A stretch of 24,000 nt of DNA, from assembly GCA_020631895.1 (NCBI GenBank), contig JACKGR010000002.1, forward strand, positions 1 through 24,000, written 5' to 3'. Below, one piece after another: positions 826 to 18,754 of this stretch (position 1 is its first letter; every line of letters starts with the position of its first letter). Under the pieces are notes generated by a model that saw nothing but the letters and a program-made list of their open reading frames with translations, did not search any database and had not been told where the DNA came from. Position numbers and translations under genes: made by a program. Source of the DNA: Candidatus Nomurabacteria bacterium (GTDB lineage Bacteria > Patescibacteriota > Saccharimonadia > Saccharimonadales > UBA7683).

Positions 826-850
826 TTACATTATCTCCTTAATGACTACA

Positions 851-1285: not shown

Positions 1286-1287
1286 AA

Positions 1288-1698
1288 TCAAGATAAAGCT
1301 CCAAATATAAAGCTTGTGATAACAAACACTGATATACCGAGAACTAATCCAATAACTGCATACATTATTGTTTTTTTGGCAGTTGCAATGGCGTTTCCAT
1401 CTCCTCCTGATAATGCATACCTCATGCCTCCGATAACTATAAATAGTAGCGACAACATGGTCAGAGCCCCAAATGCAAGTTTTGTTAGTGTCTGAATTAT
1501 TGAAGTGTCTGATCCACAACCGTAAGTCGGGAGACCAATTACACTAGCATCAAGCAGAGCCTTATTGTTTGAGCAGGGCACTCTAGTTGCCGCTTTTGAG
1601 GCAACCGCAAAATTTGGACTAAAAATCGTTAAAAGTAACGACACAAAGACAACTAATCCAACAATTGATCCTTTACTGAACCTAAATAACTTGCTCAT
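1288..1698 (-). CDS. VirB2/TrbC-type T4SS pilin-like protein, paralogue P3
   Basis: 136 aa. Signal peptide (FAVAS|KAAT), one Cys pair (VPC...YGC), core LSLLFIVIGGMRYALSGGDGNAIATAKKTIMYAVIGLVLGISVFVITSFIF. Its start overlaps the P4 stop in ATGA (1695-1698). Its stop TGA lies 2 nt before the P2 ATG. Confidence 0.8.
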   Translation of the reverse strand: MSKLFRFSKGSIVGLVVFVSLLLTIFSPNFAVASKAATRVPCSNNKALLDASVIGLPTYGCGSDTSIIQTLTKLAFGALTMLSLLFIVIGGMRYALSGGDGNAIATAKKTIMYAVIGLVLGISVFVITSFIFGALS

Positions 1699-2048
1699 GT
1701 TACTTTAAAAACCGTTCCGATAATAAATCCAACAAGCCAGGCCGACAAAATACAAACAAACAACCCAATCAACGCATTTGTCATGGTGTTTCTGGCAGAT
1801 TTTATGGCTTCTGGTGAACCCTGGCTGGTAACCATTTTAAACGCTCCAAATATAAAAAATACGATTGATACTAAAGCGCCGATTCGGAGCAGGGCGTCAG
1901 TTATTCCAGCTAGAACCAACCATACACTACCGACCCCATATGTCTTAAAGTCAAGATTTTTACATGAACCCGGCATGTACTTATACCAACCCTCAATAGT
2001 AAAGAACGTGTTTCCGCAACTTGCCGCTAGATTTTCTAAAAATGACAT
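1695..2048 (-). CDS. divergent pilin-like two-TM protein, paralogue P4 (no recognisable signal peptide)
   Basis: 117 aa. Begins directly with a Cys-pair segment (ASC...GSC). Then a two-helix core LLRIGALVSIVFFIFGAFKMVTSQGSPEAIKSARNTMTNALIGLFVCILSAWLVGFII, with the same helix-loop(..A.K.A..T...A)-helix layout as P1-P3. An in-frame TAG at 2085-2087 and no alternative start upstream fix the ATG at 2048. Confidence 0.65.
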   Translation of the reverse strand: MSFLENLAASCGNTFFTIEGWYKYMPGSCKNLDFKTYGVGSVWLVLAGITDALLRIGALVSIVFFIFGAFKMVTSQGSPEAIKSARNTMTNALIGLFVCILSAWLVGFIIGTVFKVT

Positions 2049-2084
2049 CTTGTAAATAACTATATTATAGATACTTATTAGAGT

Positions 2085-2918
2085 CTATAGGCTAAATACG
2101 CCACCTGGAATTAGCCACTGTAGTAGGCCGAACATAAACGCATAAATAACGATTCCAATCACGACATTATATATTCTAGTTTTGGCTCCAGCGACCGCTT
2201 GAGGATTATCCTGAGCTGCAGCGTATTGTATGCCAGATATTACCAAAAAGAATACCGCCAAGATACCTAGACCTAAAGTGAACCACTTAATATATGACGA
2301 GACCCTTGCTACAAATTTTGACTTAGCTCCTGCATTATCAATATTTATAGCACCTCCTGCGCTTGTACTGTCGTCGACAGGACCCGGTGGATCAGCCCAG
2401 TCGGATTTATAATCGCTTAAGAACTGTTGCTGTATCCGTCTTACACAATCAGCATCCTGGTCATCGACAGTACCACAGTCTTCGATTATCTGCTTTAACG
2501 CATCATAGAATTTGGTACTTTTATTGGGCAAAATATAACAACCCTCTGGAACCCTAGCTTCGTCAGCCGGCGAACGGCTAGCGTCAAACCTCGGAGCGCA
2601 GAATTGCGGAATAGTAAATCCAGCAAATCTTTTTAATTCTGTTGGTTTACGGTATACAAAGCCTAGAAAAGCCTGTTTGCACTCTTCTTGTTTATCAGAA
2701 TTAGCCAATCCACACCACTGATTTGTTAAATCATCAAATTTACGTCTGCTCATTGTGCAATTATATGGTTTATCTTGACTACACCCAGACGGACCCAAAG
2801 CGTCAGCTTTTACTTCTTTTTGCATCAAAATAAATACTGACGATGTTAGTAATATGCCGAGTAATACCAACAACTTAGTCAATTTAAAAGCGTAGTGTGT
2901 TTTTCCAATTAAATTCAT
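2085..2918 (-). CDS. pilin-core protein with about 190-aa 8-Cys N-terminal ectodomain, paralogue P5
   Basis: 277 aa. N-terminal signal/anchor (LLVLLGILLTSSVFIL) followed by a soluble region with 8 Cys. C-terminal two-helix module: WFTLGLGILAVFFLVISGIQYAAAQDNPQAVAGAKTRIYNVVIGIVIYAFMFGLLQWLI, homologous in layout to P0-P4. Confidence 0.7.
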   Translation of the reverse strand: MNLIGKTHYAFKLTKLLVLLGILLTSSVFILMQKEVKADALGPSGCSQDKPYNCTMSRRKFDDLTNQWCGLANSDKQEECKQAFLGFVYRKPTELKRFAGFTIPQFCAPRFDASRSPADEARVPEGCYILPNKSTKFYDALKQIIEDCGTVDDQDADCVRRIQQQFLSDYKSDWADPPGPVDDSTSAGGAINIDNAGAKSKFVARVSSYIKWFTLGLGILAVFFLVISGIQYAAAQDNPQAVAGAKTRIYNVVIGIVIYAFMFGLLQWLIPGGVFSL

Positions 2919-3018
2919 AGTATATAGCTAACATATTATACTAAATCATTAACTCGTTAAATGGGGCCTTTTTAAATATTTGTAATCCCAGGGCTACTTG
3001 TTTACAATAAGCTTAATA
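2919..3018. promoter_or_regulatory. divergent control region between the pilin array and the T4SS-like operon
   Basis: 100-bp AT-rich gap between divergently oriented gene sets. Minus-strand TATAAT (2940-2935) lies 16 nt upstream of the P5 ATG with no good -35. Plus-strand candidate is TTAAAT (2957-2962)-N18-TGTAAT (2981-2986). A 6-bp inverted repeat AGTATA/TATACT sits at 2919-2924 and 2937-2942. Promoter function is not demonstrable from sequence. Confidence 0.35.
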
Positions 3019-5955: not shown

Positions 5956-5961
5956 GTTTTT

Positions 5962-6858
5962 ATGGCGACACACAAAGTACCCCAAGACGTAGAGACAGAA
6001 GATAAGATAATTGGCTTTTTAAGCCTTAAACAGTTCATCTTTGTGGTTGTTGGCATCGGCTTTGGTTGGCTGACTTTCTTCTTTGCTACTAGAGTCAACG
6101 TGATTCTTGCACTCATTTGGATTCCTTTTACTGTCGTACCGTTAGTCCTTGGACTCTACCAACGTAAAGACCAGCCGGTAGAAGTGTTTTTGGCATCGGC
6201 ACTTAGGTTTTATTTTAAACCTCGTAAGAGAAAATGGGATCAAGAGGGCTATGAGGAGAGAGTACTAGTGACCGCACCACCAAAAGTTGAGCATCACTAT
6301 ACCAAAGACTTCTCTGGTGAGGAAGCCATGAGCCGATTGACAAGGTTATCTCGAATGATGGATTCACGTGGTTGGGCAAGTAAGCTCAGTGGTGAGTGGC
6401 AAAATCCACAGTTGGCAGCTGCGGCTACGTCTGACGCACGACTCGTTCAGCCGGCTAATTTAGCCACAAATGATTCCGGTTACTTACAAACCTATATGCA
6501 GCCAACTGATGTCATGGACGAGCAAACCAGCGTAGTTGCAAAGGACTTTCAATACAAAATTGACGCAACTGACACTAGTGCCCAGGTAGGTGCTATGAAG
6601 ACCATGGATGCAGCCAGAGCAACTAGTGATAACCCCGCACCACATGTAGAAAAGTATCCCGATATGAGACAATCGGTGGTAAAGCCAATTACAGCTGATA
6701 CTATTACAAGCTCCGCTCCTGACCCTGTGGCACCACCAGTAGTTCAAGATGATGCAACTGAGCCAGAAAACGATGTCCAGCAGCCTATTAAGTCCTCAAC
6801 CTACGAGCCAAAAGTTCAAAAATCAGACGATGGCTCAGTCGAAATCTCCCTCCATTAA
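5962..6858 (+). CDS. PrgI/TcpE (VirB3-like) family membrane protein with long low-complexity C-terminus
   Basis: 298 aa. The N-terminus MATHKVPQDVETEDKIIGFLSLKQFIFVVVGIGFGWLTFFF...ILALIWIPFTVVPLVLGLY shows the VP.D....EDKI.G....Q lead-in plus two TM helices typical of PrgI-family proteins in Gram-positive conjugation loci. It lies upstream of VirB4. The remaining 190 aa or so are acidic, P/T/S-rich and probably disordered. Confidence 0.6.
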   Translation: MATHKVPQDVETEDKIIGFLSLKQFIFVVVGIGFGWLTFFFATRVNVILALIWIPFTVVPLVLGLYQRKDQPVEVFLASALRFYFKPRKRKWDQEGYEERVLVTAPPKVEHHYTKDFSGEEAMSRLTRLSRMMDSRGWASKLSGEWQNPQLAAAATSDARLVQPANLATNDSGYLQTYMQPTDVMDEQTSVVAKDFQYKIDATDTSAQVGAMKTMDAARATSDNPAPHVEKYPDMRQSVVKPITADTITSSAPDPVAPPVVQDDATEPENDVQQPIKSSTYEPKVQKSDDGSVEISLH

Positions 6859-6869
6859 ATTAGGTGGTA

Positions 6870-7057
6870 GGGAATAGGTAGTGGGTGGTAGGGATTATAA
6901 GAGAGCAGATGAGAGGCAAAGAATAGCAGGTAAACATATTTGTCATTCCTGCCCGAGTTTATACTCGACTCGATCGGGTACAGAAATGATGGGAATCTCC
7001 CATATTCTGTTTCCCTCACTCCAAAACCCTACTACCTAGTACCTAAAACCTATTGCC
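6870..7057 (+). repeat. long imperfect inverted repeat / candidate structured RNA inside the operon
   Basis: 6870-6893 pairs with 7027-7041 plus 7049-7057, leaving a 7-nt bulge at 7042-7048. 22 of 24 positions pair, counting two G-U pairs that exist only in the + strand transcript. Inner arms (6943-6957 vs 6969-6989) pair partially. The 11-nt direct repeat GGTGGTAGGGA occurs at 6863-6873 and 6884-6894. No ORF of 60 aa or more lies in 6859-7141. Confidence 0.5.
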
Positions 7058-7141
7058 TGCGCCCCCGGGCGCTATACTTGCGTAGCAGGGGTAGTCCATG
7101 TCATACTCTTTAGGTAATTAGGGTGTGGCTCTATTAATTTT

Positions 7142-7999
7142 ATGCAACCAAATCAACCGACGATACCATCGCAACAACCCATGCAACCCGCTGGACAGCC
7201 AGCGGTACCTTCGCAACCACAGCAAGCAACTGCGCCCCAACAAGAACAGCAGCCACTAAGCCCATCTGTCGCTCCTAAAAACCCAAACAGCACCCAAAAT
7301 ACACTTGAGATTGCAGCCATTCGTGATGGTGTAGTTATCATGAACGACGGAAGTTTTAGATCGGTTGTGATGGCAAAGAGCATTAACTTTGATCTTATGA
7401 GTATTAACGAGCAAGAGGCTGTTGAATTTGCTTATCAGAGCTTTTTAAACTCATTGTATTTTGATATTCAAATCCAAGTCAGATCACGCAAAATTGATAT
7501 GCGACCTTATCTCGAGAAGCTAGGTCACATCAGAACAGAGATGAGTAATATGCTTCTAGGAATGTTGATGGAGGATTATATATACTTTATCGATGACCTT
7601 GTATCGCAAACCAATATCATGAATAAACAATTTTATGTAGTTGTGCCATTTATGCCAATTGTTTCAGCCAGTGGGGCCGTTAATGCCGGAAAAGGACTAG
7701 TTGGAGGGCTTATCGGTGGTAAAAAGAACAAAGGTGTTATAAAAATTGATGAGGTAAATCTAGAAAAAGCCAAGACTGAGCTCACAAACCGAGTCCAGAG
7801 TGTAGTAAGTGGACTGTCAAATCTTGGAGTTCAATCAATACCACTAGACACTCAAGAGCTTATTGAGCTATATTACAATGCATTTAATCCTGATACTGCT
7901 ACACGTCAAACACTAAAGCAAGCTGATCAGTTGGCAGTTCCTGTAGTAACAAAAGGTGAGGGACAAGCGCCCAAGCCAAATCTCGGAGTAGGTTTATAA
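7142..7999 (+). CDS. VirB4 N-terminal-domain-like protein (separate ORF) with Q/P-rich leader
   Basis: 285 aa with no TM segment. After a Q/P-rich leader of about 45 aa comes TLEIAAIRDGVVIMNDGSFRSVVMAKSINFDLMSINEQEAVEFAYQSFLNSLYFDIQIQVRSRKIDMRPYLEKL...FYVVVPF...LDTQELIELYYNAFNP. From memory, this resembles the first 200 aa or so of single-chain Gram-positive VirB4 homologues (Tn916 Orf16 / PrgJ / TcpF type). Its stop overlaps the next start in TAATG (7997-8001). Confidence 0.5.
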   Translation: MQPNQPTIPSQQPMQPAGQPAVPSQPQQATAPQQEQQPLSPSVAPKNPNSTQNTLEIAAIRDGVVIMNDGSFRSVVMAKSINFDLMSINEQEAVEFAYQSFLNSLYFDIQIQVRSRKIDMRPYLEKLGHIRTEMSNMLLGMLMEDYIYFIDDLVSQTNIMNKQFYVVVPFMPIVSASGAVNAGKGLVGGLIGGKKNKGVIKIDEVNLEKAKTELTNRVQSVVSGLSNLGVQSIPLDTQELIELYYNAFNPDTATRQTLKQADQLAVPVVTKGEGQAPKPNLGVGL

Positions 8000-9921
8000 T
8001 GGCTATATTTGGAGGTCAAAAAAACCAAACTGATCCAGTAACGCTGGCCCAACAACAACGTCAGCGTGAACAGCAAGAGGTTGATAGTGCATTCAGACAA
8101 GGTATTTCTGAGATGCGTGATTTTATCGCACCAAGTAGTCTTGAGATTGAATCTAGCTACTTTAGACTAGGCACAATGTACGGACGCTCCTTTTATGTAT
8201 ATGGCTACCCGAGGCAAATCTTTACAGGTTGGCTATCTTCAATCGTAAACATGGATGAAGAGATTGACCTATCAATGTTTATATATCCAGTAGCAAGCCA
8301 AGTTGTTTTAGAGAACTTGCGCAAAAAAGTTAGTCAACTTGAAGCTGGTCTACAAATTGACGCAGAAAAAGGTCGCGTAAGAGATCCGGCTAAACAATCA
8401 GCCATAGTCGACGCCGAGGAACTTAGAGACAGTTTACAAATAGGAGAGGAGAGATTCTTCCGGCTTGGTCTATACATCACGACATATGCAAAGAGCCTTG
8501 AGGAGTTAGATTTTATACAGCACAAGGTCGAGACCGTTCTTGGACAACAACTAATATACTCAAAGCCAGCCACAGTACAGATGGAGCAAGGCCTAAACTC
8601 GACAATGCCACAATTTACTGACCAACTTCAAGTACGCCGAAACATGAATACAGGGGCTCTTGCCACCAGTTTTCCGTTCACCTCAGCAGATTTAACGCAG
8701 GAGAACGGTATTTTGTATGGCATAAATATGCACAATAATGGCCTAGTACTATTTGATAGATTCTCACTAGAAAACGCCAATATGGTGGTCTTTGCCAAAT
8801 CTGGTGCTGGTAAATCATTTGCTGTAAAACTTGAGGCTGTCAGATCAATGATGATGGGTACCGAGATTGTAATTATAGATCCCGAGAATGAGTATGAGCG
8901 ACTATGTGATGCAGTAGGTGGTAGCTATATCAGAATGAGTCTCAGCTCAACAACTCGTGTTAATCCATTTGACCTACCACAAGTTATTGATCAAGATGAT
9001 GCAGATAACGCGCTTAGATCAAATTTAATTACTCTTCACGGTCTAATGAGATTAATGATGGGTGGCGCACTAAGTCCTAACGAAGAGGCTGATCTTGACC
9101 AAGCCCTTATCGATACTTATGCAAAAGCCGGTATAACTGGCGATCCTCTTACCCATCAAACCCCGCCACCAACAATTAATGACCTCTACGAGACGCTACT
9201 TCACATGCAAGGCTCAGGTCCAAGCATGGCTCAGCGACTCAGAAAATATACCACAGGGACATTTGCTGGAATATTCTCACAACAAAGTAATGTTGATATC
9301 AACAACAACATGGTTGTCTTCAACATTCGCGATCTTGAAGATGAACTCCGGCCAGTAGCCATGTATATCGTACTTAATCACATCTGGAACAAAACAAAAT
9401 CTGATAAAAGAAAAAGAAACCTGATTATTGATGAGGCTTGGCAACTTCTTAAGTACCAGGACTCGGCTAATTTTATGTTCTCCCTGGCAAAGCGCGCACG
9501 AAAATACTATTTGGGACTCACAACCATATCTCAGGATGTTGAGGATATGATGAGTTCGCAAACAGGACGAGCTATTGTATCTAACTCGTCGATGCAATTA
9601 CTTCTTAAGCAATCAACCTCGGCTGTTGATGTTCTCTCTGCCGTATTTAAACTTACTGGTGAAGAGAAGAAGCGTCTTAGCCAGTTCCCGGTAGGACAAG
9701 GGTTATTATTTGCCGGACAAAATCACGTCCATATTCAAATCATAGCCAGCCCAACCGAGACCAGCCTTATAAGCACAAACCCGGAGGAGATGCGTAAGGT
9801 TCAAGAGGTTGCCGCTAGAGCACAAGAAGCCTATCAAGTTATGACTCAAGCAAATAACACCGGAAACATCGCCGCAAATCAACATTCAGTCACGCCCACC
9901 CCTGCAGAGCCAACAGAGTAA
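7999..9921 (+). CDS. virB4: VirB4/TrbE/PrgJ-family T4SS ATPase (C-terminal two-thirds of the canonical protein)
   Basis: 640 aa. APSSLEIESSYFRLGTMYGRSFYVYGYPRQIFTGWLSSIV (VirB4 middle-domain pattern). Walker A FAKSGAGKSF. Walker B NLIIDEAWQLL. Downstream TISQDVEDM motif. GGAG lies 10 nt upstream of the ATG. Confidence 0.9.
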   Translation: MAIFGGQKNQTDPVTLAQQQRQREQQEVDSAFRQGISEMRDFIAPSSLEIESSYFRLGTMYGRSFYVYGYPRQIFTGWLSSIVNMDEEIDLSMFIYPVASQVVLENLRKKVSQLEAGLQIDAEKGRVRDPAKQSAIVDAEELRDSLQIGEERFFRLGLYITTYAKSLEELDFIQHKVETVLGQQLIYSKPATVQMEQGLNSTMPQFTDQLQVRRNMNTGALATSFPFTSADLTQENGILYGINMHNNGLVLFDRFSLENANMVVFAKSGAGKSFAVKLEAVRSMMMGTEIVIIDPENEYERLCDAVGGSYIRMSLSSTTRVNPFDLPQVIDQDDADNALRSNLITLHGLMRLMMGGALSPNEEADLDQALIDTYAKAGITGDPLTHQTPPPTINDLYETLLHMQGSGPSMAQRLRKYTTGTFAGIFSQQSNVDINNNMVVFNIRDLEDELRPVAMYIVLNHIWNKTKSDKRKRNLIIDEAWQLLKYQDSANFMFSLAKRARKYYLGLTTISQDVEDMMSSQTGRAIVSNSSMQLLLKQSTSAVDVLSAVFKLTGEEKKRLSQFPVGQGLLFAGQNHVHIQIIASPTETSLISTNPEEMRKVQEVAARAQEAYQVMTQANNTGNIAANQHSVTPTPAEPTE

Positions 9922-9941: not shown

Positions 9942-12900
9942 ATGGACGACGACAAAGGCTCAAGTACAGATCTGTTAGAAAGACCAGATTCTGATGATGC
10001 TGGTCCTTCTTTAGGCGACAGAGCGTCGGGTATTGGTGACGGTGTTAGATCAGCAGCAGACTCAGCAAAAAAGGTTATCGGAAAAGCGTCAGGTGGCAGT
10101 GGTGATGGTCTAGGAAGTTCACTAGCTGGTGGCCTTAGTAGTCTAGCTGGACATGGAAGCGCGGGTAATAGTATTGATGGAATAAAGCCAAAGTTGCCAG
10201 GAGTTGCAGGTGGCGATGGGGCTGATAAAACTCCAGGCATGTTTAAGGGTCTCGAGGGTGGAGCAAACCCTGCTAACAAAAACGATACAAGTGGCGATTC
10301 CGAAAACCCCAGTGCCAAAGATTTTGCCAGGAAGGCCGGTAAAAATGCTAGTCAGAAAGTAGAACAAGCTGCAAAAGACATCGCTCAAACTGCCAAAGAG
10401 GTCAAGCATGCCGCTACTGCGGTTGCCACTCTTGGTGCAAACGCTTTAGATGATGCGGAGCTGGCTAAAGATCTTGCGCAAGCAGCCTTGCACCCGATAC
10501 AAACCGCTAAACGTTATGGACGGGTTGCTCTATATCTAATCGGCTTCTTTTTTATTCAGACTTTTATTGTCTTTGCGGCAATTGGTGTTATCTTCTTTGG
10601 AATATACAAGGTTTATCTAATGACAATGGATATTGTAAACATAAATCCTACAGATGTAGTGACAGAGCTCCGCGTAGAAAACGAGATGGCAAGTTGGCTA
10701 ATATCCTCAGTTGGTGATTTGGCATATCAGCGTGATATAGCAGCCCAAAGACAGCCTGGAGTGGCCGTCGCACAAAATCGACCTAACTTGCCCGAGCCGC
10801 AAAGTAGCCCAGAAACTTCAAAAATGTTCCAGACTTGGGATAATGCAGGTCTTGCTGCAAAATTTATGGATGAATACCACGCAAGATTTGAACCATCTAA
10901 TGGATCTGCAGCAGGAGATAGCACTAATCCAGGAAATTGGGATCTTATTGTCGGTAATAAAAATTTTGGCAACGTTAACGGTACAAAAGCTCGGGCATTT
11001 ATCTCAATATTTGCCGACCACACAACACACTGGAGAGATATCTACACCAGAGAGGCACTACAAGGCGTAGCGACAAACTCATTTGATACCCAATCGTTTA
11101 AACTTAATTTGCCTGATCCAGAATACAATATAGGAAACAGCAGAGTTAATACAACAAAACAACTCGTCAGCAGCACGGCCAAACCGATAACCAGTAAGTC
11201 TATCACCTATTACAATTGTTTAATTGCGGGAGGTGATAGCTGTAACTCCTTAGGATTAGGATCAACTGGCTCACCAACAAACGTATCGACCGATGCCTCT
11301 GGTGGTATAGTTTCAACAATAATTAGTAACTTAAGAAACGATATTAGAACCAGAGTTCTACAAAACACAGTCGGTGTTGAACAAATTGGTCAATATGCTA
11401 GTAGCACTGCCGAACAAGTTACACCCGAGACCAGCACATATGACACCAAACGAATCCTATCAGCTAATATCAGAACAGGGTCATCAGACACAATTTTATC
11501 CAACCTTCCTAAAGATGCCAACGGAGCCCCTAAAAATAGCGCCCTGCTAGATCTTTATGATAGATATAGAGAATCTGTAAATAATGATAACTTCTCAAGA
11601 GTAAACTATGATAGAGAATCTCGACAGAGTGTTGCTCTAGCGGAGAACTACTTCGTTGCCGGGGGACAACTTGTAAATAACGAGATGGGTTTACTAGATA
11701 GCTGGGCACTAACCGAGAATCTAAGTATTGTTACACAGTCACCATTGTTTAGACGGGCGGTTATCGGCAACCCAATCGGGGTCTTTGCAGAGGACGAGGC
11801 AGATGATGGAGTAAGGTCGTGCCAAAAGATATATAATGATCTATCACCTGTAGGAGACATATCGGACAACCTAGATCGCGACACTACAAACAACTCTTGC
11901 TTCAGGCTTGCACTAGTTCCTGATAAGGCCACTGTTTTGAGCGATAGATCAGCAAATAGAATTTATAACATACTTGAGGAGAAAAATGAGGAAGTTAATA
12001 AATCCAACGGAGTGTTTAGTGTTGGTGATGCACTAAATGCCGCTTTGCAAAGATACAATAACCGAGAGATAAGATCATCTCCACTAGCGACTGAGAGCAT
12101 TAAGGTGGCTCAAGATTTAAGTCCAGATTTTGATGGATATACAAATAATGTTTATGGAGTATCTAAGACAGGTGCTGAAATCAACGGTGATGCTTACGAT
12201 AGTATGAGGCTGGCTGCCGAAGCTCTTTGGACCAAGGCATTGATCGACGATCAAGTTGGTATTGGCGCCAGCTACCAAACCGATGAACAGACAGCAGAAG
12301 TTATGCGTTATGCCCAGAAAATTGATCGCGAGAAGATGGCATTTAAACCTCTGGGGGAACGATTGTTCTCACTTAAGGATTCTAAATCACTAACGGCAAA
12401 GCTTGCCATGATGACGCCAACCAACAAAAAAGATGGGTTAAAGAGCACACTAGCCCTGTTAAAGCCGAGTAACCTTACATCTGCCGTAGCTAGTCGAATG
12501 GTGCCATCAACTTTTGCCCAGGACACAGCCCCAGTTAATCCCCTAAATGCTATCAGAACTGGATATGCACTGGATGATCCATCAAACAGAATGTCAGGTG
12601 ATCAAATTTGGCAACAATATAGCTGCGACTCTGGCGGTCCGACTCAATCAGAGTCTCAACCAAATGGAGTTCCCTTTAATATAGCTACAAATACAAACCC
12701 CTGTAAACGTGAGGCTGTGCTCTCAAGAATCACCACCTGTTACTTTGATACAGAGGATAGTTGCTCTATGGTTGGTAGTGGGTCTACACCAACGCCAGCA
12801 GCAACAACCAGTGGTACCGTTGGAGACATTGGCGAGAGCTCTGATAGCGTACCGTGTGCTGAAGGATCAAATGACATCGGTAATGTAGAATCTCGATACG

Positions 12901-13388
12901 CGGGGTCACTCAGAAAAGATATTCCTCTTATTATTAAGTTGTGTCAGGTACCTGATATTGGAGGACGTGGCAATGATACTAGTGGTAACAATATCGAGGG
13001 TGGAATTGTTGTAAACTCTCGAGTATCCGGTGCCTGGGTGGCTCTCGGTAGAGCAGCCAAATCAGCCTCACCAGCTATCAATCTAACTGGTAGTTCATTC
13101 AGACTAGCCGACTCCTGCGGCGGGGGAGGCGACGGATCGCTTTGCGCCCGACCAGGCACATCTATGCATCAGCTTGGTATTGCGGTAGATTTTAGCGATA
13201 TGGGGTCCAGTGGTGGTAGTACATCAAGTTGTAGTGGCAGAAAAGGTGCTCGAGGTGATCCAAGATGGGATTGGTTATTTAGCAATGCCCAGAACTACGG
13301 AATCAAACAGTATTCCTACGAACCATGGCATTGGGACACAAACCCAGGAGCAAATAGATGTGACAGTTCGTCACCGGCGGTATACTAA
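9942..13388 (+). CDS. bitopic T4SS-associated protein with C-terminal VanY/M15-type (LAS) peptidoglycan peptidase domain
   Basis: 1148 aa. The N-terminal 195 aa or so are G/S/D/A-rich and Cys-free. One TM segment follows (VALYLIGFFFIQTFIVFAAIGVIFFGIY). The ectodomain of about 900 aa has 14 Cys. The C-terminus SFRLADSC...ARPGTSMHQLGIAVDFS...NAQNYGIKQYSYEPWHWD carries the VanY-type H-x6-D and E-x-W-H zinc motifs. Confidence 0.75.
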   Translation: MDDDKGSSTDLLERPDSDDAGPSLGDRASGIGDGVRSAADSAKKVIGKASGGSGDGLGSSLAGGLSSLAGHGSAGNSIDGIKPKLPGVAGGDGADKTPGMFKGLEGGANPANKNDTSGDSENPSAKDFARKAGKNASQKVEQAAKDIAQTAKEVKHAATAVATLGANALDDAELAKDLAQAALHPIQTAKRYGRVALYLIGFFFIQTFIVFAAIGVIFFGIYKVYLMTMDIVNINPTDVVTELRVENEMASWLISSVGDLAYQRDIAAQRQPGVAVAQNRPNLPEPQSSPETSKMFQTWDNAGLAAKFMDEYHARFEPSNGSAAGDSTNPGNWDLIVGNKNFGNVNGTKARAFISIFADHTTHWRDIYTREALQGVATNSFDTQSFKLNLPDPEYNIGNSRVNTTKQLVSSTAKPITSKSITYYNCLIAGGDSCNSLGLGSTGSPTNVSTDASGGIVSTIISNLRNDIRTRVLQNTVGVEQIGQYASSTAEQVTPETSTYDTKRILSANIRTGSSDTILSNLPKDANGAPKNSALLDLYDRYRESVNNDNFSRVNYDRESRQSVALAENYFVAGGQLVNNEMGLLDSWALTENLSIVTQSPLFRRAVIGNPIGVFAEDEADDGVRSCQKIYNDLSPVGDISDNLDRDTTNNSCFRLALVPDKATVLSDRSANRIYNILEEKNEEVNKSNGVFSVGDALNAALQRYNNREIRSSPLATESIKVAQDLSPDFDGYTNNVYGVSKTGAEINGDAYDSMRLAAEALWTKALIDDQVGIGASYQTDEQTAEVMRYAQKIDREKMAFKPLGERLFSLKDSKSLTAKLAMMTPTNKKDGLKSTLALLKPSNLTSAVASRMVPSTFAQDTAPVNPLNAIRTGYALDDPSNRMSGDQIWQQYSCDSGGPTQSESQPNGVPFNIATNTNPCKREAVLSRITTCYFDTEDSCSMVGSGSTPTPAATTSGTVGDIGESSDSVPCAEGSNDIGNVESRYAGSLRKDIPLIIKLCQVPDIGGRGNDTSGNNIEGGIVVNSRVSGAWVALGRAAKSASPAINLTGSSFRLADSCGGGGDGSLCARPGTSMHQLGIAVDFSDMGSSGGSTSSCSGRKGARGDPRWDWLFSNAQNYGIKQYSYEPWHWDTNPGANRCDSSSPAVY

Positions 13389-15796
13389 TGAGTAATATGA
13401 AAATGAGAATAAAAAGAGCCTTCAAACTAGCATTTCAGATTTCTGCCTTGGTCTTATTTATACTATTTAGTCTAAATACACCACCTGCTGACGTAATCAG
13501 TCCGGTGGCTCGGGCAATATCAGAGTGTGACAAATTTGCGATCGATAAAGGCTCAATACTAGCCGACAACGAACTATGTCAACCATGTACCGACAATACC
13601 GATAATGCCATATCTAAGAAGGTGTTTGTAATAGGTGATTCGCTTACTAAGGCCATGAGGGATGATGGTCAAATGCAAGCTAAACTTGAGAGCAGAAACT
13701 TTGAGGTTACAAAGATAGAGGGGAATAATGGATTTAATATAAATGATTCACTTCCATTAATCGATTCCGATGCAAACGAAATTAGCCAGGCTGATATTGT
13801 GGTTATAGGTCTTGGTACAAATCCTGAACCAAATTTTGGGCAGAAGGTACCCGAAATGATAACCAAAGTAAAACAGAAGGCACCAAATGCTCAGATATTT
13901 TGGACAAACGTTCATGTTCAACCAGGCGCGTATATCGACCCTTCATTTTTAGGTAATAATAGAATAAATCAAATTTTAGAGACCAAAAGCCAGTCAGAAG
14001 GCTTTACAGTAATCGATTGGGACAAAGAGGTGACCGACAATCCTAACCCTTACCCTTTTCTAGGAGACGGCGTGCATCACACTCCTGAGGGTTCGGTTGC
14101 AAGATCAGATTTTATTGCAAGTGCGCTTCCACAATCTGAAGATCCTTCTGAGCCAAGTGGCACGGGATCTACACAAGAGTTAGCCTCTCAAATGATCAGC
14201 AACGGCAATATTACCTACTGGGAGAATAATGGCGTAAACACAAGAGATGTAGTTGTTGCTCTGTCAGAAGGGAGAAAAGCGTTTACCACCTCTAATGATC
14301 CACTCGCCGTAGAGAATCGCGAGGTAGACATCAATCCAAACATTCTAAGCTTTATATTAGAAGCTGCTAAAACTGGTCCTATAATGGTAAACGCGCTTAC
14401 TGATAAAGATCACTCATCAAACTCAAACCACTATAAAGGCAAAGCAGTGGATCTACAAAACAGCGGCCCAAACACTCAAGCAGTATCTGTATACGATGCC
14501 GCTGCGCAAAAGTTTGGAGGCGTCAGAAACAGCGAGACCACTCACTGGCACTATGACTTCACCTCTGACGCAACAGCCATCCCTGTCGGGAATAATAACG
14601 ACACAGCTAATCCCTCATGCTGTTCAAACTCTGGTGGAACAGGCACTTTAACAGGTGCTAATAATGAGGAGAAGATATTTAACTACCTGTCATCCGGTAA
14701 AGGAATAAATGCCATACAGGCAGCTGGAATAATGGGTAACATGAAGATGGAGTCCAGTTTTAACCCAACAGCTCTAGAATCTGGTGGTACCGGAAGAGGC
14801 TTGGTTCAGTGGTCATTTGGTAGAAGAACCAATCTAGAGACTGCCGCCACTGCTGCAAATGTTGACCTCTCTATAGACGATGATGCCAATATATTATTCC
14901 AGCTCGACTATATGATTAATGAATCAAAAGGCCGAGATTCTATTACCTTCGATGGCGTTAAAGAATGGGACGGTTTAGCCAGAACTACCCGGGTTGATAC
15001 ATTTGATGAGACCCAGGGATCAACAATCTACTGGGAGGCTAACTTTGAGAGACCAAAAAATCCCGGTCAAAAATCTAGAATCGACGCTGCTATAGACATA
15101 ATGACTCGACTTGGAGGCGGTGGTGGTGGAGGAGGGGGTGTTGTTACTCAAGTATCTACAACAACTCAGTCCAACTGCCCAGGAGCAGGCTCAAGTATGG
15201 TATGCGAAGGGAACGGTACGGTACCACTACCAGACGGTATTGATATAACATTCTTTAATTCCCACAACCACCACCAATCAGTCAGTTACCCTGGAGGATC
15301 TAATAGACACAGACCACTTCTTGGAAACTTTGGTGCTTACGGAACTGAAAGTGTAACCAAAAACGGCCCAGGAACCGGCGAAGCTGTAGATGTTGGTGCC
15401 CCACCGGGAACAGCCGTACTAGCTCCCGTAGATGGTAAAGTCACCTATTCTGACGGCGTAAGTGGTCGTGGAGATTCTGATAAAGCTGTAGTCATCGAAT
15501 CTACTAATAAAAAATGTGCTGCAACTTTAGCGCACATGCAACCGACAGTATCAGAAGGGGATATGGTAACTGCAGGTCAAGAGATTGGCACGCTTACAAA
15601 TATGGCCAACTCACACCTTCACTTCGAACTTTGGGTTGATGGCGAGCCAATAAATATTGGTCCGGACAGCAGTCCGTGTGGATTAGGTGAGGATCCTTGT
15701 GATAACTTCTCAGACGAAGCCGAGCAAATATGGAATAAACAAAAAGAGGCGTTAACTAATTCAGCAGCAGGAGCATCAGATGTTATATCACTTTAA
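13388..15796 (+). CDS. secreted four-module cell-wall hydrolase: SGNH/GDSL esterase + LAS (M15-like) peptidase + tail-lysozyme-like domain + M23-like peptidase
   Basis: 802 aa with an N-terminal signal/anchor (FQISALVLFILFSL).
- SGNH blocks: VFVIGDSLT, VVIGLGTN, DGVHHTPEG.
- LAS motifs: SNHYKGKAVD (H-x6-D) and THWHYD (H-x-H).
- Lysozyme-like: AIQAAGIMGNMKMESSFNPTALESGGTGRGLVQWSFGRRTNLE.
- Gly9 linker.
- M23-like: PPGTAVLAPVDGKV...ATLAHMQPTVSEGDMVTAGQEIGTLTNMANSHLHFELWVDGEPIN. The usual first H of the HxxxD motif is not evident (GEAVD).
The start overlaps the previous stop in TAATG (13386-13390). ATGs at 13397 and 13403 are alternative starts. Confidence 0.8.
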   Translation: MSNMKMRIKRAFKLAFQISALVLFILFSLNTPPADVISPVARAISECDKFAIDKGSILADNELCQPCTDNTDNAISKKVFVIGDSLTKAMRDDGQMQAKLESRNFEVTKIEGNNGFNINDSLPLIDSDANEISQADIVVIGLGTNPEPNFGQKVPEMITKVKQKAPNAQIFWTNVHVQPGAYIDPSFLGNNRINQILETKSQSEGFTVIDWDKEVTDNPNPYPFLGDGVHHTPEGSVARSDFIASALPQSEDPSEPSGTGSTQELASQMISNGNITYWENNGVNTRDVVVALSEGRKAFTTSNDPLAVENREVDINPNILSFILEAAKTGPIMVNALTDKDHSSNSNHYKGKAVDLQNSGPNTQAVSVYDAAAQKFGGVRNSETTHWHYDFTSDATAIPVGNNNDTANPSCCSNSGGTGTLTGANNEEKIFNYLSSGKGINAIQAAGIMGNMKMESSFNPTALESGGTGRGLVQWSFGRRTNLETAATAANVDLSIDDDANILFQLDYMINESKGRDSITFDGVKEWDGLARTTRVDTFDETQGSTIYWEANFERPKNPGQKSRIDAAIDIMTRLGGGGGGGGGVVTQVSTTTQSNCPGAGSSMVCEGNGTVPLPDGIDITFFNSHNHHQSVSYPGGSNRHRPLLGNFGAYGTESVTKNGPGTGEAVDVGAPPGTAVLAPVDGKVTYSDGVSGRGDSDKAVVIESTNKKCAATLAHMQPTVSEGDMVTAGQEIGTLTNMANSHLHFELWVDGEPINIGPDSSPCGLGEDPCDNFSDEAEQIWNKQKEALTNSAAGASDVISL

Positions 15797-17384
15797 TAGA
15801 TTCTTAAACTTCATTCGTACGCACAAAATTTTAAGTATAGTGTCTGTTATATCTTTGTTTTTAGTAATATTATTGTCTCAGTTTGGTTTTATTGAGGTAA
15901 ATATAAAACAAGACAATCTAAAATCTGATACTAAAGTAAAATTACTAAATCAAAAAACATCTAAAACTACCTCTAAAAAAACTAACACCTCCTCAATTAA
16001 AAAACTTGTAAGAAGGGGTACTTACGAGGTATCGGTTTTTAACAAAGCAGGTACGAGTTTTAATATTAAGTCAGTTGGCGGATTTCTAAGAACAACCAAG
16101 TTGTCGGCAAATCTAAAATCAGAGAACTATAGCGAGTTTATCGGTTACAACCCTAAAGCCTGTGTAAACTACAATAAAATTGTAGCAGTATCCTGGGGTT
16201 GCACAAGTGATACAAGCGTATTTACAATTCATCACCCAGCTATTGGTCTTCAGCCCACCTACAATGAATCCGGTCCCAGGGTATTAACTGGCAGACCAAT
16301 ACAAAACCAATCCTCCAGTAATAACGGAGAATATGAGGAAACTGCAGATGAATTAAGTGGAACAATTGAGGGGATTTTTGAATCTAATGGTTCTAATTAC
16401 ATGCTAATTAGAGAGGTTGGCTATGGGGGATCAGACTATCAACATGTTATCTACAGTTTAAATGGTAGTTATCAAATTGGCAAAAGAACCGTTGTGTCTG
16501 GTTTGGATTCCAAAAAACTATACAAGATAGAGGGAATGGGTAATGGATTCTTGATTTATGATACGTCTATGACAGATTTTTATAGATATGACACAGTTGA
16601 GTCTAAACCTAAAAAAGTTAGTTTTAATTCACCAGCAAACGATCAGATTAAGCCAAGCCTTGTTAAAGTGTCTGGTTCAAAAATTTTTATATTATATTCA
16701 AACTATATTAAAGATGGAGAGACAGACATAGCTACAAAAGATTTAATAAACACGGTAGTTACTGTTGACTCAAACTCAAACAACTCACAATCGTTTGATG
16801 GTATGTATGTAGATCAATTCAGTACATGTGGAAACGGATTTTGTATTCTATCAAATGGCACACTAAAAATTTATGGACTAGTTAAAAACAAACCAAAATA
16901 TTTATACGAGATAAAACAAGTTAATACAATCATTAATGTTGGTAAGGTTTTATTAGTCTCAAAGCCAGACGGTACGGTTAGTCTATCGGTCGATAGCAAG
17001 TCAGGTTACTTTGGACATACAAATAACGGTCTTGAATCCTGCGGTATAGTTTATGTTCACATAGATTATTATGTTGAATGTGTGATTGATAAATATAAGA
17101 GACGATCACTACTGAGCGTTGATACAACAAAAAATAGCCAGACAAGAATAAGCAAAGTAGTTAATGATATATCAAATATTAATAACGTAACTGGTATTTC
17201 AGTCTATAAAAAATCTATCCTAATCACGCCAGATGCAGGAGAATTTACATATATTCCATCCATAAAGAGCTATGGCTACGATCCAGAAATTCAGAAGCAA
17301 TCGATATCAGATTTAAAATCATCTATAAATAAGTTAGATTTTGATTTATCTGGCTATAAAATTTATATAGTTGGTGATAACTAA
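15780..17384 (+). CDS. hypothetical N-terminally membrane-anchored protein (AT-rich orphan, last gene of the operon)
   Basis: 534 aa. AGGAG lies 6 nt upstream of the ATG, inside the preceding gene (17-nt overlap). One N-terminal TM segment (ILSIVSVISLFLVILLSQFGFI). The remainder is N/K/S/Y/I-rich with 6 Cys and no motif I recognise. Confidence 0.7.
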   Translation: MLYHFNRFLNFIRTHKILSIVSVISLFLVILLSQFGFIEVNIKQDNLKSDTKVKLLNQKTSKTTSKKTNTSSIKKLVRRGTYEVSVFNKAGTSFNIKSVGGFLRTTKLSANLKSENYSEFIGYNPKACVNYNKIVAVSWGCTSDTSVFTIHHPAIGLQPTYNESGPRVLTGRPIQNQSSSNNGEYEETADELSGTIEGIFESNGSNYMLIREVGYGGSDYQHVIYSLNGSYQIGKRTVVSGLDSKKLYKIEGMGNGFLIYDTSMTDFYRYDTVESKPKKVSFNSPANDQIKPSLVKVSGSKIFILYSNYIKDGETDIATKDLINTVVTVDSNSNNSQSFDGMYVDQFSTCGNGFCILSNGTLKIYGLVKNKPKYLYEIKQVNTIINVGKVLLVSKPDGTVSLSVDSKSGYFGHTNNGLESCGIVYVHIDYYVECVIDKYKRRSLLSVDTTKNSQTRISKVVNDISNINNVTGISVYKKSILITPDAGEFTYIPSIKSYGYDPEIQKQSISDLKSSINKLDFDLSGYKIYIVGDN

Positions 17385-18486: not shown

Positions 18487-18754
18487 AAATTCTCCTTATT
18501 TAGACCAGACTGTTATTAATTGTCTTTTATTTTTTAAACAAATAGTAGTAATAGTAGGCACAGTGGAAACAGTGTATAAACCGGTCGACATTACCTGTTG
18601 GAAGGATGCATATTGCCTGTGGATTTGTGATAGTAAAGACGCAGATTGGATACTAGACTTACCCACACACACTAAGTTACTAAGTAGATTTTGTGGGTAA
18701 GTTAGACTTCTACACAAAGTTTTACTTGCCTTGTCAGAAGGTTGTACACATTTT
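18487..18754. other. dnaA-dnaN intergenic DnaA-box cluster with AT-rich tract (oriC candidate)
   Basis: DnaA-box-like 9-mers against the TTATCCACA consensus:
- TTACCCACA, 18659-18667, 1 mismatch.
- TGTGGGTAA, 18692-18700, 1 mismatch, inverted. These two form a perfect 10-bp inverted repeat, CTTACCCACA / TGTGGGTAAG.
- TGTGGATTT, 18618-18626, 2 mismatches.
- TTGTACACA, 18742-18750, 2 mismatches.
An AT-rich stretch spans 18511-18558. Confidence 0.55.

Follow-up and report, generated by a model that had tools for sequence, protein, structure and literature searches.

Patescibacterial T4SSs are MPF-FATA-like, chromosomal and located near dnaA, and they lack a relaxase (PMC12102498). The relaxase is absent from most of these clusters, and Southlakia has neither a recognisable coupling protein nor a relaxase (PMC12102498, PMC10633639). 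A VirB1-like component is listed in a FEMS review (PMC12857230). In Candidatus Southlakia epibionticum ML1, two genes downstream of virB4, SEML1_0006 and SEML1_0007, are essential for epibiotic growth (Tn-seq; Wang et al. 2023, PMC10633639). Both are annotated by structure in the supplements (PMC10633639).

PrgK of pCF10, the hydrolase of a DELTA-class Gram-positive T4SS, is another close relative in kind, and TraG of pIP501 is comparable. PrgK consists of TM, LytM, gp13-like muramidase, and CHAP. Only one of its hydrolase-type domains shows activity in vitro, and the donor's own wall is the proposed target (PMC11323569). phi29 gp13, the tail-tip "morphogenesis protein 1" (3csq), combines a lysozyme-like domain, a poly-Gly linker, and M23. 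Here these proteins are compared with a multi-module hydrolase encoded in an ultrasmall epibiotic Saccharimonadia (Saccharibacteria) bacterium.

The hydrolase gene and its T4SS locus

The gene lies in a window of 24 kb, i.e., the whole stretch of DNA analysed (Table 1). It is an ATG-started ORF of 802 codons for amino acids, exactly where the preliminary description had placed it, and its last 17 nt are shared with the next gene. The same protein sequence (P0001) is recorded in NCBI and occurs, amid the same neighbouring genes, on three metagenome contigs.

Table 1. Positions of the genes and protein modules in the window
Feature	Position	Strand	Basis
Array of four divergent VirB2/T4SS pilin genes	367..2918	-	Pfam T4SS_pilin, E 6e-14 to 2e-7
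T4SS core genes, same operon	2998..9921	+	Pfam; order kept in 9 related loci
985-aa membrane protein, T4SS core	2998-5955	+	
PrgI/VirB3-like gene	5962-6858	+	
285-aa TraC-like N-domain protein	7142-7999	+	
VirB4 ATPase	7999-9921	+	
1148-aa membrane protein, C-terminal VanY-type LAS peptidase	9942..13388	+	Pfam VanY, synteny
Four-module wall hydrolase gene	13388..15796	+	ATG shares TAATG with upstream stop
N-terminal chassis, aa 1-67	13388..13588	+	Hydropathy, alignment of 15 proteins
SGNH/GDSL esterase, aa 77-250	13616..14137	+	Pfam, profile, model
MID, Hedgehog/DD-peptidase (LAS, M15-like) zinc peptidase, aa 258-394	14159..14569	+	Motif, profile, model
Phage-tail lysozyme (gp13 N-domain/PrgK "MUR"-type), aa 420-576	14645..15115	+	Pfam, alignment, model
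Gly9 run (aa 576-584) and ~80-90-aa low-confidence tether	15113..15379	+	Sequence, alignment, model
M23/LytM-type module, aa 665-757	15380..15658	+	Pfam, family profile, alignment
Conserved C-terminal tail, aa 758-802	15659..15793	+	74-91% identity in P0002-P0006
534-aa protein, N-terminal hydrophobic segment, without family match	15780..17384	+	ORF, Pfam, synteny

The gene order is VirB6-like, PrgI, TraC-like, VirB4, a protein of approximately 1000 aa, a multi-module hydrolase, a protein of approximately 450-550 aa, and dnaN-dnaA, flanked by rnpA-yidC-jag. This order of T4SS, hydrolase, dnaN, and dnaA recurs in Saccharimonadales and Patescibacteria genomes. In related loci reaching that far, the gene after the hydrolase encodes about 420-580 aa, with one exception (L009), where two shorter ORFs occupy the position. 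The hydrolase locus is a chromosomal monoderm-type T4SS operon beside dnaN/dnaA, whose synteny is kept across Saccharimonadia.

The 1148-aa neighbour has its VanY domain at aa 1068-1131 (nt 13143-13334; E=6e-7, 29.7 bits against a cut-off of 25). Owing to this C-terminal domain, the earlier count, five lytic-type modules across two neighbouring genes, is correct. SEML1_0007 is the positional counterpart of this protein. As in Southlakia, the two genes lie directly downstream of virB4 in an origin-adjacent T4SS cluster, and a multi-module hydrolase with a phage-tail lysozyme among its domains comes after a protein of ~1100 aa that has a LAS peptidase at its C-terminus. While SEML1_0006 (643 aa) has a glucosaminidase, a tail lysozyme, and a cysteine peptidase, it lacks SGNH, M23, and an internal Hedgehog/DD-peptidase. 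In Southlakia the Hedgehog/DD-peptidase is on the large protein; in the window it is inside the hydrolase, and the large protein carries a VanY-type domain. The suggested link to an epibiont holds, as the locus is a Saccharibacterial T4SS with counterparts essential for epibiotic growth of Southlakia (PMC10633639, PMC12102498).

Like PrgK, the hydrolase is encoded in a monoderm T4SS operon and has an N-terminal membrane anchor and several hydrolase-type domains on flexible linkers. Both proteins have a gp13-like muramidase (phage-tail-lysozyme fold) that carries a catalytic Glu, and in both the metal site of the LytM/M23 domain is incomplete. PrgK differs in its long cytoplasmic N-domain, its CHAP, its domain order, and the lack of an esterase or LAS. 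Its LytM is without both motifs, while M23 of the hydrolase misses only the first His. PrgK serves conjugation, whereas the Patescibacterial system has no relaxase and is needed for epibiotic growth.

Modules and tethers of the hydrolase

That a single polypeptide carries four modules is confirmed, and every motif quoted in the preliminary description is present. The order is SGNH esterase, Hedgehog/DD-peptidase (MID), phage-tail lysozyme, and M23. Three of the four pass the curated cut-offs of Pfam; only the LAS module fails and is identified by motif, profile, and model. Catalytic residues are kept across relatives in the SGNH, LAS, and lysozyme modules, while M23 is without its first zinc ligand. 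The model of the protein has four confident domains and low-confidence linkers (pTM 0.35), with disordered tethers of 45, 25, and 88 residues.

The chassis was aligned among 15 proteins whose downstream architectures differ. It starts with a basic N-terminus and a hydrophobic helix at about aa 11-31, which the model places at 2-30. A possible signal-peptidase site, the conserved A-x-A|IS at aa 41-45, is followed by the Cys motif ECDKFAIDKGSILxDNxxC-xC at aa 46-67.

In the SGNH module, Lipase_GDSL_2 matches residues 81-235 (Pfam; E=1e-10, 42.7 bits against a cut-off of 32.9). The catalytic residues are S85 (GDS 83-85), G113, N145 (GTN 143-145), and D227/H230 (DGVH 227-230). Among SGNH relatives, G83/D84/S85 are conserved in 44/44, N145 in 42/44, and H230 in 43/44. 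The profile finds 4h08 (1e-8) and the C-terminal SGNH domain of OatA (6vjp, 2e-8) in PDB. In the model (pLDDT 85-96), the closest folds are acetyl-xylan and sialate O-acetylesterases and OatA-C; the closest characterised relatives in sequence and fold are 6vjp, 5ufy (TMt 0.74), 7ddy, and 6njc, which share the SGNH fold with its Ser-Gly-Asn-His blocks. OatA itself is a transferase with an acyltransferase-3 membrane domain, which the hydrolase lacks. The profile search against PDB gave no match to Ape1-type O-acetyl-PG esterases. The module had been called a candidate O-acetyl-peptidoglycan esterase, and its kinship to carbohydrate O-acetylesterases and OatA SGNH fits this proposal, a fit rather than a proof.

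MID contains H342, S346-x-H348-x-x-G351-x-A353-x-D355, and E383-x-x-H386-x-H388, and thus both motifs of a LAS-type zinc peptidase, H-x6-D (H348-x6-D355) and H-x-H (H386-W-H388). It stays below the Pfam cut-off (Peptidase_M15_3, E=0.17; HH_signal, E=0.2). The LAS assignment nevertheless stands, because all 55 homologous domains keep the SxHxxGxAxD...ExxHxH residues, the profile matches the N-domains of Sonic and Indian hedgehog in PDB (E about 0.008), and the AlphaFold model is confident (pLDDT 84.9, core >93). The best PDB folds by Foldseek are ShhN (6n7g_C), the Streptomyces Zn DD-peptidase (1lbu), and VanY, all weak matches (E=7e-3 to about 1, TM about 0.38). The Hedgehog/DD-peptidase of Southlakia is assigned to the corresponding ECOD domain, e6n7gC1, the top fold match of MID.

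MID shares H-x6-D, H-x-H, and the upstream catalytic His and Glu with the Hedgehog/DD-peptidase family (LAS, MEROPS M15-like), including bacterial "bacHh" domains (Roelink 2018, PMC6027127). Local sequences are also alike (DKDHSSNSNHYKGKAVD in MID and DGHHSEESLHYEGRAVD in Shh). The similarity to Hedgehog is limited to the zinc-site core (E about 0.008, TM about 0.38). In MID, Glu and His are one residue closer together (E-x2-H-x-H) than in the Hedgehog family (E-x3-H-x-H), and MID has an extra N-terminal helical part. Bacterial domains of this family are often the C-terminal end of larger proteins. MID defines a distinct subfamily of small size: 232 clusters reach E<=1e-10 in a set of 1.84 billion representatives. 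MID is also the module most conserved and most widely shared among relatives.

Phage_lysozyme2 matches the lysozyme module at residues 426-573 (Pfam; E=5e-26, 91.9 bits against a cut-off of 28.2), with the motif AAGIMGNMKMESSFNP...GRGLVQW at 445-475 and pLDDT of 74-92. phi29 gp13 is the best PDB sequence match (E=8e-7), and its domains correspond to the C-terminal half of the hydrolase. The catalytic E455, kept in 44/44 relatives, sits opposite E45 of gp13, and the Gly9 run lines up with the Gly linker. The virion protein gp13 lacks a signal peptide and has a short linker and an intact M23 motif, H(x)7D...HxH, while the hydrolase has a linker of ~90 residues, no first His, and two further modules in front. 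The tether (pLDDT 25-41) carries a His-rich motif, FFN(S/A)HNHH..HRP (aa 622-642), which is clade-specific and conserved only in P0002-P0006.

Peptidase_M23 matches residues 665-756 (Pfam; E=7e-16, 58.6 bits against a cut-off of 28.7), and the family profile matches ShyA at 3e-26. D668, H716, H743, and H745 are present, the last two within SHLHFE (742-747). The caution that the first His is missing (GEAVD, 664-668) was right: the residue four before D668 is Gly (G664) in the hydrolase and its five closest relatives. Remoter relatives show HxxxD or HH-x5/6-D instead. M23 is the most conserved module within the clade of the hydrolase (81-86% identity). The tail behind it carries C764/C771 and a predicted helix at 774-790.

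Mosaic origin

The hydrolase is an evolutionary mosaic of two lineages, judging from identities along its sequence. Over residues 1-400, identity to P0007-P0010 is about 60-67%, and this anchor-SGNH-MID half is common to SGNH-MID-glucosaminidase proteins. Over residues 420-802, identity to P0005/P0006 is about 59-65%, rising to as much as 91% in the C-terminal tail, and this lysozyme-Gly-M23-tail half is common to SGNH-lysozyme-M23 proteins. Modules are shuffled among genomes whose VirB4 is 90-93% identical. At a VirB4 identity of 93%, both hydrolase-bearing proteins are only about 39% identical. The protein is a local mosaic version of the already known, module-swapping "VirB1-like" wall hydrolase and not a new kind of system.

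Proposed role in crossing cell walls

We consider it probable that the hydrolase is the dedicated, "VirB1-like" or PrgK-class wall hydrolase of this T4SS. A related reading, possible but rather doubtful, makes the host wall the main substrate. The hydrolase would be displayed or released at the host interface and digest thick, possibly O-acetylated Actinobacterial peptidoglycan; the T4SS pilus or channel would gain the host membrane, and the module set would be matched to the chemistry of the host wall. In Southlakia, it is specifically epibiotic growth that requires the T4SS and the two hydrolase-bearing genes downstream (PMC10633639), although failed T4SS assembly explains this equally. The module types all correspond to those of virion-associated phage lysins, which act from outside in. 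The architecture of the C-terminal half is that of gp13, and matches include tape-measure proteins and endolysins (PHROG) and tail proteins, tailspikes, and Gordonia phage esterases (BFVD). PrgK, however, applies the same module types to the donor's own wall. The divergence and module swapping described above also point toward the host, but swaps of equivalent glycan-cutting modules could be neutral. The long tethers could extend the reach of the protein. Host-wall breaching by the hydrolase is plausible. The module number had been thought far more than local remodelling at a secretion channel needs. This argument fails because PrgK has three hydrolase-type domains, one of them active in vitro, and is proposed for the donor's own wall. 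Nor is the count informative as a sum of activities, with M23 here lacking a zinc ligand.

A housekeeping autolysin for growth, budding, or division that just happens to sit beside the T4SS genes close to the origin is improbable. While enzymes of the M23, LAS, and glucosaminidase types often act in growth and division (PMC9662197) and an origin-proximal position means high gene dosage, the gene is translationally coupled and always stands between the large protein beside VirB4 and the following gene of the T4SS locus, across genomes with VirB4 68% to 93% identical to that of the window. Moreover, a phage-tail lysozyme of gp13 type is characteristic of T4SS and phage lysins rather than of division enzymes (PMC11323569), and fast module turnover is unexpected in a core division enzyme. 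Even less likely is the earlier suggestion of a secreted effector, i.e., a T4SS-translocated antibacterial hydrolase with an immunity protein, like the X-Tfe hydrolases of Xanthomonas/Stenotrophomonas. It would suit the peptidoglycan-hydrolase content and the T4SS locus. The protein, however, has an N-terminal Sec-type signal/anchor and chassis rather than a C-terminal T4SS signal, its gene is operon-coupled and fixed in position as a machine component across the class, and neither a coupling protein nor an immunity candidate was recognised within the 24-kb window. The downstream 534-aa product could in principle protect, but its size, hydrophobic segment, and lack of a family match are unlike small immunity proteins. 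Phage-type modules and the gp13-like architecture might also recall a tail lysin or tape-measure fragment left by a prophage or integrative conjugative element. This is most improbable, as the window has no integrase, relaxase, capsid, or tail genes and no tRNA, the place beside dnaA is kept and vertically inherited across the class, and the GC of the gene (0.42-0.45) is within the spread seen elsewhere in the window (0.35-0.49).

As a dedicated T4SS component, the hydrolase would be expressed along with VirB3, VirB4, the pilins, and the large membrane proteins, consistent with operon structure and kept synteny. The N-terminal Sec-type signal/anchor would export it, and the Cys-motif chassis may hold it at the machine; alternatively, cleavage at the A-x-A site could free it. 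Outside the membrane it would resemble beads on a string, as in the model. The SGNH esterase, with its catalytic tetrad intact, would strip O-acetyl groups from the glycan. Deacetylation would license the lysozyme module to cut the glycan strand via E455, an activity suggested by gp13 and PrgK. MID, in which all zinc and catalytic residues are present, would cut a D-Ala-containing peptide bond in stems or cross-links. The tethered M23 may cut cross-bridges with a non-canonical metal site or, with about the same probability, bind or regulate like the degenerate LytM of PrgK. The outcome would be a local peptidoglycan hole for the T4SS channel or pilus, which certainly crosses the bacterium's own wall and may also cross the host's wall at the epibiont contact.

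Domain composition of the 802-aa hydrolase

The open reading frame of the putative wall hydrolase was confirmed as coding for a single polypeptide of 802 aa with an ATG start, and all of the motifs quoted for it in the preliminary description were found at their positions. In Pfam profile searches the SGNH, lysozyme, and M23 modules lie above curated cut-offs and the LAS module matches only below threshold; the catalytic residues of the SGNH, LAS, and lysozyme modules are kept across relatives. The full-length AlphaFold model has an N-terminal helix (aa 2-30) and four domains that fold separately and with high confidence (aa 77-250, 258-394, 420-576, and 665-757). With low-confidence linkers and a pTM of 0.35, the protein is predicted to be organized as beads on a string. 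A search of a 5.8-billion-protein collection retrieved 85 relatives. Across the differing architectures the N-terminal anchor, an A-x-A site, a Cys motif, and a LAS peptidase form a constant part, and the remaining modules vary. The C-terminal tail (aa 761-802) is clade-specific (74-91% identity among relatives), contains two Cys residues, and includes a predicted helix. Also on record for this protein is a weak match to DUF8155 (PF26482).

The SGNH module (Lipase_GDSL_2, residues 81-235, 42.7 bits against a cut-off of 32.9, E=1e-10) has all of blocks I, II, III, and V: S85 (GDS, the nucleophile), G113, N145 (GxN), and D227/H230 (DxxH). Among SGNH relatives, GDS is kept in 44/44, GxN in 42-44 of 44 (N145 in 42), D227 in 39, and H230 in 43. 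By profile, the nearest solved structures are 4h08, a Bacteroides hydrolase, and 6vjp (E=2e-8), which is the SGNH part of OatA, a peptidoglycan O-acetyltransferase. By fold, the module model is nearest to acetyl-xylan and sialate O-acetylesterases and to OatA-C, the last being its closest peptidoglycan-related relative. The module is predicted to be an acetyl-ester-type enzyme, with the O-acetyl groups of peptidoglycan as a reasonable candidate for its substrate. Membership in the Ape1-type O-acetyl-peptidoglycan esterases was dropped because no Ape1 structure is found among 45 PDB profile matches at E<=1 or among the 50 best Foldseek matches listed.

The second module, denoted MID (aa 258-394), had been described as a LAS-type zinc peptidase. 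This holds for its motif residues but not for its Pfam scores, as Peptidase_M15_3 (12.5 bits against 23.2, E=0.17) and HH_signal (11.8 against 22.1, E=0.2), both of them LAS families, fall below cut-off. H-x6-D and H-x-H zinc motifs and a catalytic Glu define the LAS/Hedgehog family (PMC6027127). In MID the zinc-site motifs are complete (H348-x6-D355, H386-x-H388, catalytic E383, and H342), and the pattern SxHxxGxAxD...ExxH(xH) is the signature of VanX/VanY/DD-peptidases. All 55 MID domains are invariant at H342, S346, H348, Y349, G351, D355, N381, E383, H386, and H388. DKDHSSNSNHYKGKAVD of MID closely resembles DGHHSEESLHYEGRAVD of Sonic hedgehog, and the best solved relatives by profile are the N-domains of Shh and Ihh (E ~0.008). 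The domain model (pLDDT 84.9, core >93) matches ShhN (6n7g_C, E=7e-3, probability 1.0), the Streptomyces albus Zn DD-peptidase 1lbu, Drosophila Hedgehog, and VanY, with low TM-scores (<=0.38). MID is accepted as a divergent Hedgehog/DD-peptidase (LAS) domain with its predicted catalytic set intact, outside formal Pfam membership.

When the 85 relatives were mapped, aa 255-410 stood out as the segment with the widest distribution and the highest conservation. It is found in 55 proteins at typically 45-67% identity, even in those that lack the other modules, have them in another order, or share just ~25-35% identity in them. The MID subfamily is small: an exhaustive profile search found 639 clusters at E<=1e-3 and 232 at E<=1e-10, of 1.84 billion. 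Among the best 150 representatives, MID is located at the extreme C-terminus of proteins of at least 830 aa in 48 and at the C-terminus of shorter proteins in 57; only 32 have it internally, as here. That MID is a duplicate of the VanY domain at the C-terminus of the 1148-aa upstream neighbor was rejected (BLASTP E=0.06, HWH region only), and the two are different LAS subfamilies.

The phage-tail-lysozyme module of the preliminary description is well supported by Phage_lysozyme2 (residues 426-573, 91.9 bits against a cut-off of 28.2, E=5e-26) and by E455, which aligns with catalytic E45 of phi29 gp13 and is kept in 44/44 relatives. Compared with the PDB, the full-length protein matches gp13 best (3csq, E=8e-7), and the Gly linker of gp13 aligns with the poly-Gly run of the hydrolase.

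The last module matches Peptidase_M23 (residues 665-756, 58.6 bits against a cut-off of 28.7, E=7e-16), and the M23 family profile matches ShyA at E=3e-26. The HxH motif H743-L-H745 is kept in 13/13, D668 is invariant, and the mid-domain catalytic-type H716 is nearly so. The H(x)nD zinc-ligand motif is incomplete, with D668 present and no His within 27 residues upstream. The earlier caveat about the missing first His was therefore correct: the position is G664 in this protein and in its five closest relatives (P0002-P0006). More distant M23 relatives have HxxxD or HH-x5/6-D, the latter spacing recalling H(x)7D of gp13; known spacings in M23 are x3, x7, and x12. M23 is the most conserved module within the clade (81-86% identity) and is therefore under constraint. 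It may be catalytic, or it may be binding or regulatory like the degenerate LytM domains of PrgK and EnvC. The clade-invariant E665, three residues before D668, is a speculative substitute zinc ligand. A clade-specific His-rich motif, FFN(S/A)HNHH..HRP (aa 622-642), lies in the 88-residue tether before M23. It is likewise a speculative stand-in for the missing ligand; the segment has a pLDDT of 25-41 in the full-length model, and its alignment holds six informative sequences only.

The T4SS locus and the origin region

The hydrolase gene is co-oriented with VirB3/VirB4 inside a T4SS gene cluster, in which genes for the 985-aa membrane protein, PrgI/VirB3, a TraC-like protein, VirB4, the VanY protein, the hydrolase, and a 534-aa protein are arranged on the same strand in tight or overlapping order. 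Four sequence-divergent pilin genes are transcribed divergently from this operon and match the pilin arrays reported in Saccharimonadia. Directly downstream are dnaN, dnaA, and a DnaA-box cluster, then rpmH, rnpA, yidC, and jag. No relaxase, coupling protein (T4CP), integrase, or tRNA was recognised in the 24-kb window. Patescibacterial T4SS are MPF-FATA-like, located near dnaA, without relaxase, and equipped with VirB2 pilin arrays (Quinonero-Coronel et al. 2025, PMC12102498). Ten related loci, drawn with the MID profile from one-genome-per-species GTDB data, all belong to Saccharimonadales or Patescibacteria, and gene order up to the origin is identical in them and in a further related locus, L014. 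The locus is therefore a chromosomal, vertically inherited Saccharibacteria T4SS and not a mobile element.

Coordinates of features in the window
Feature	Positions	Strand
Four VirB2-type T4SS pilin genes	367-2918	-
985-aa membrane protein	2998-5955	+
TraC-like N-domain protein, 285 aa	7142-7999	+
VirB4 ATPase, 640 aa	7999-9921	+
VanY protein, 1148 aa	9942-13388	+
Hydrolase, 802 aa	13388-15796	+
His-rich segment (aa 622-642)	15251-15313	+
C-terminal tail (aa 761-802)	15668-15793	+
534-aa protein	15780-17384	+
106-aa ORF	18496-18816	-
dnaA	18755-20122	-
DnaA-box cluster	20142-20255	
Probable oriC	20142-20476	
rpmH, 45 aa	20339-20476	
MazF toxin gene	22398-22757	-
AbrB/MazE-like antitoxin ORF, 84 aa	22726-22980	

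The identical protein P0001 carries the NCBI label 'Candidatus Nomurabacteria bacterium', which is probably wrong because all of the loci nearest to this one, with VirB4 90-93% identical and synteny shared, are from Saccharimonadales. VirB4 appears to be split into a TraC-like N-domain gene and an ATPase gene, an arrangement also found in eight related loci (those reaching far enough upstream) and in Ca. Southlakia epibionticum (SEML1_0009/0008). Pfam has no match for either the 534-aa or the 985-aa protein. Wherever a related locus reaches far enough, it has a similarly sized gene at the corresponding position, except that L009 has two shorter ORFs downstream of the hydrolase; the counterparts diverge fast (26-55% identity or undetectable). 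Both proteins are candidates for missing VirB8-like, VirB6-like, or adhesin components.

Between dnaA and rpmH lies the probable oriC, in which two DnaA boxes (TTATCCACA) are perfect and a third is near-perfect, and the window therefore probably spans the replication origin. Note that only this cluster is meaningful; 11 boxes in the whole window against 7.5 expected are not above chance. Directly after jag, a MazF toxin gene is overlapped by its antitoxin ORF, both on the minus strand. As a ParE-type pair exists at the equivalent place in L014, this looks like a toxin-antitoxin insertion hotspot beside the origin. The 106-aa ORF between dnaN and dnaA overlaps the annotated dnaA start; it has a 37%-identical counterpart in locus L007, ORFs comparable to it in size and placement are present in L004, L009, and L010, and it could be a real small gene or reflect a mis-called dnaA start.

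Module exchange among related hydrolases

The order SGNH-MID-Lys2-M23 (Lys2 being the phage-tail-lysozyme module) is shared with the relatives P0002-P0004, and MID-SGNH-Lys2-M23 is found in P0012 and P0017; the four-module set thus exists beyond the window, in permuted order included. P0007-P0010 have SGNH-MID-glucosaminidase, and further architectures are MID-SLT-M23, MID-Lys2-VanY, Lys2-MID-glucosaminidase-VanY, SGNH-GH3-Lys2, and SGNH-Lys2-M23. The acetyl-esterase is often paired with the gp13-type lysozyme. Hydrolase architecture differs from that of the window even in L001 and L007, whose VirB4 proteins are 93% and 90% identical, and both hydrolase-bearing proteins have ~39% identity between loci where VirB4 has 93%. 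Module turnover is fast relative to the core T4SS machine. The first half of the hydrolase is ~60-67% identical to SGNH-MID-glucosaminidase proteins, and the second half is ~59-65% identical to SGNH-Lys2-M23 proteins, with up to 91% in the C-terminal tail. On these identities, the protein is a mosaic of halves from two lineages.

No examined locus is without a LAS peptidase; one of the two genes codes for at least one, of the MID or the VanY type. The stricter rule that MID is always present in the locus is refuted by L014, where MID is missing from the hydrolase and VanY is found on the large protein. LAS retention, module exchange at 90-93% VirB4 identity, and esterase-lysozyme pairing appear to be new, as they were not found stated in the literature examined.

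Relation to known T4SS hydrolases and possible functions

Multi-module wall hydrolases in monoderm T4SS, this lineage included, are already established. PrgK of enterococcal pCF10 has a membrane anchor, a degenerate LytM domain, CHAP, and a domain labelled 'SLT' that is in fact a muramidase of gp13 type; in vitro the muramidase alone is active, the other domains down-regulate it, and the donor's own wall is argued to be the target (PMC11323569). In Southlakia, SEML1_0006-0019 are essential for epibiotic growth by Tn-seq (Wang et al. 2023, PMC10633639). These include the positional counterparts of the large protein and the hydrolase: SEML1_0007 (1113 aa) has a Hedgehog/DD-peptidase domain at its C-terminus in a structure-based table, and SEML1_0006 (643 aa) has glucosaminidase, phage-tail lysozyme, and cysteine peptidase (PMC10633639). 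These counterparts are indirect evidence that the hydrolase may be required for T4SS function. With such multi-module enzymes established, the earlier claim that four modules go far beyond the needs of local remodelling around a secretion channel does not hold. A VirB1-like component is listed for Patescibacterial T4SS in a 2025 review (PMC12857230). The 802-aa protein has no SLT or CHAP match in Pfam, and so lacks the lytic-transglycosylase or CHAP homology of VirB1/TrsG/CD419; SLT is carried by some relatives (e.g., P0016). It is a functional analogue of VirB1 and not a sequence member. Its place among the Saccharibacterial T4SS hydrolases, as a mosaic that combines an esterase with an internal Hedgehog/DD-peptidase, is well supported.

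The best explanation, and in our judgment a probable one, is that the hydrolase is exported by Sec, is dedicated to the T4SS, and makes openings in peptidoglycan through which the channel or pilus passes. In a plausible division of labour, the SGNH esterase would de-O-acetylate peptidoglycan, the gp13-type lysozyme would cleave glycan, the Hedgehog/DD-peptidase would cleave stems or cross-links, and the tethered M23 module would cut or bind. Host wall as the principal target is a lesser possibility, consistent with modules that all belong to the phage virion lysin toolkit, with their fast turnover and long tethers, and with counterparts essential for epibiosis. However, PrgK applies the same parts to its own wall, and module shuffling does not prove that the host wall is targeted, since one module could take the place of an equivalent one neutrally. 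A bolder and rather unlikely version is that the hydrolase acts from outside as a Saccharibacteria host-range 'key', with esterase, glycosidase-type, and peptidase-type modules recombined round a constant chassis of anchor and Hedgehog/DD-peptidase so that they suit the chemotype and O-acetylation state of the peptidoglycan in each host lineage.

The N-terminal signal, operon coupling, and conserved synteny argue alike against three other readings: a housekeeping autolysin, which is improbable, a T4SS-translocated antibacterial effector of the X-Tfe type with an immunity partner, which is still less probable, and a prophage/ICE remnant, whose probability is negligible. The effector option had been offered in the preliminary description, whose observations stand and whose interpretation stands in part. 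Such effectors are marked by a coupling protein, a C-terminal translocation signal, and an adjacent immunity gene. The protein has a Sec-type signal at its N-terminus instead, and neither a T4CP family match nor an immunity candidate was recognised in the window. Gene context led to the rejection of both the effector/immunity and the prophage/ICE-remnant readings.

If the T4SS-dedicated reading alone is true, the hydrolase adds one well-annotated case to a class already known; its value would rise substantially if module content tracked host wall chemistry. Few systems have been shown to be indispensable to Patescibacteria living as epibionts, and the T4SS is one of them; the hydrolase genes beside virB4 offer the most direct access to the step in which it crosses two cell walls. 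LAS retention, module exchange, and esterase-lysozyme pairing give testable predictions in the Southlakia and Nanosynbacter genetic systems. If the host-range reading is true, module content would predict which Actinobacteria an epibiont can parasitise.
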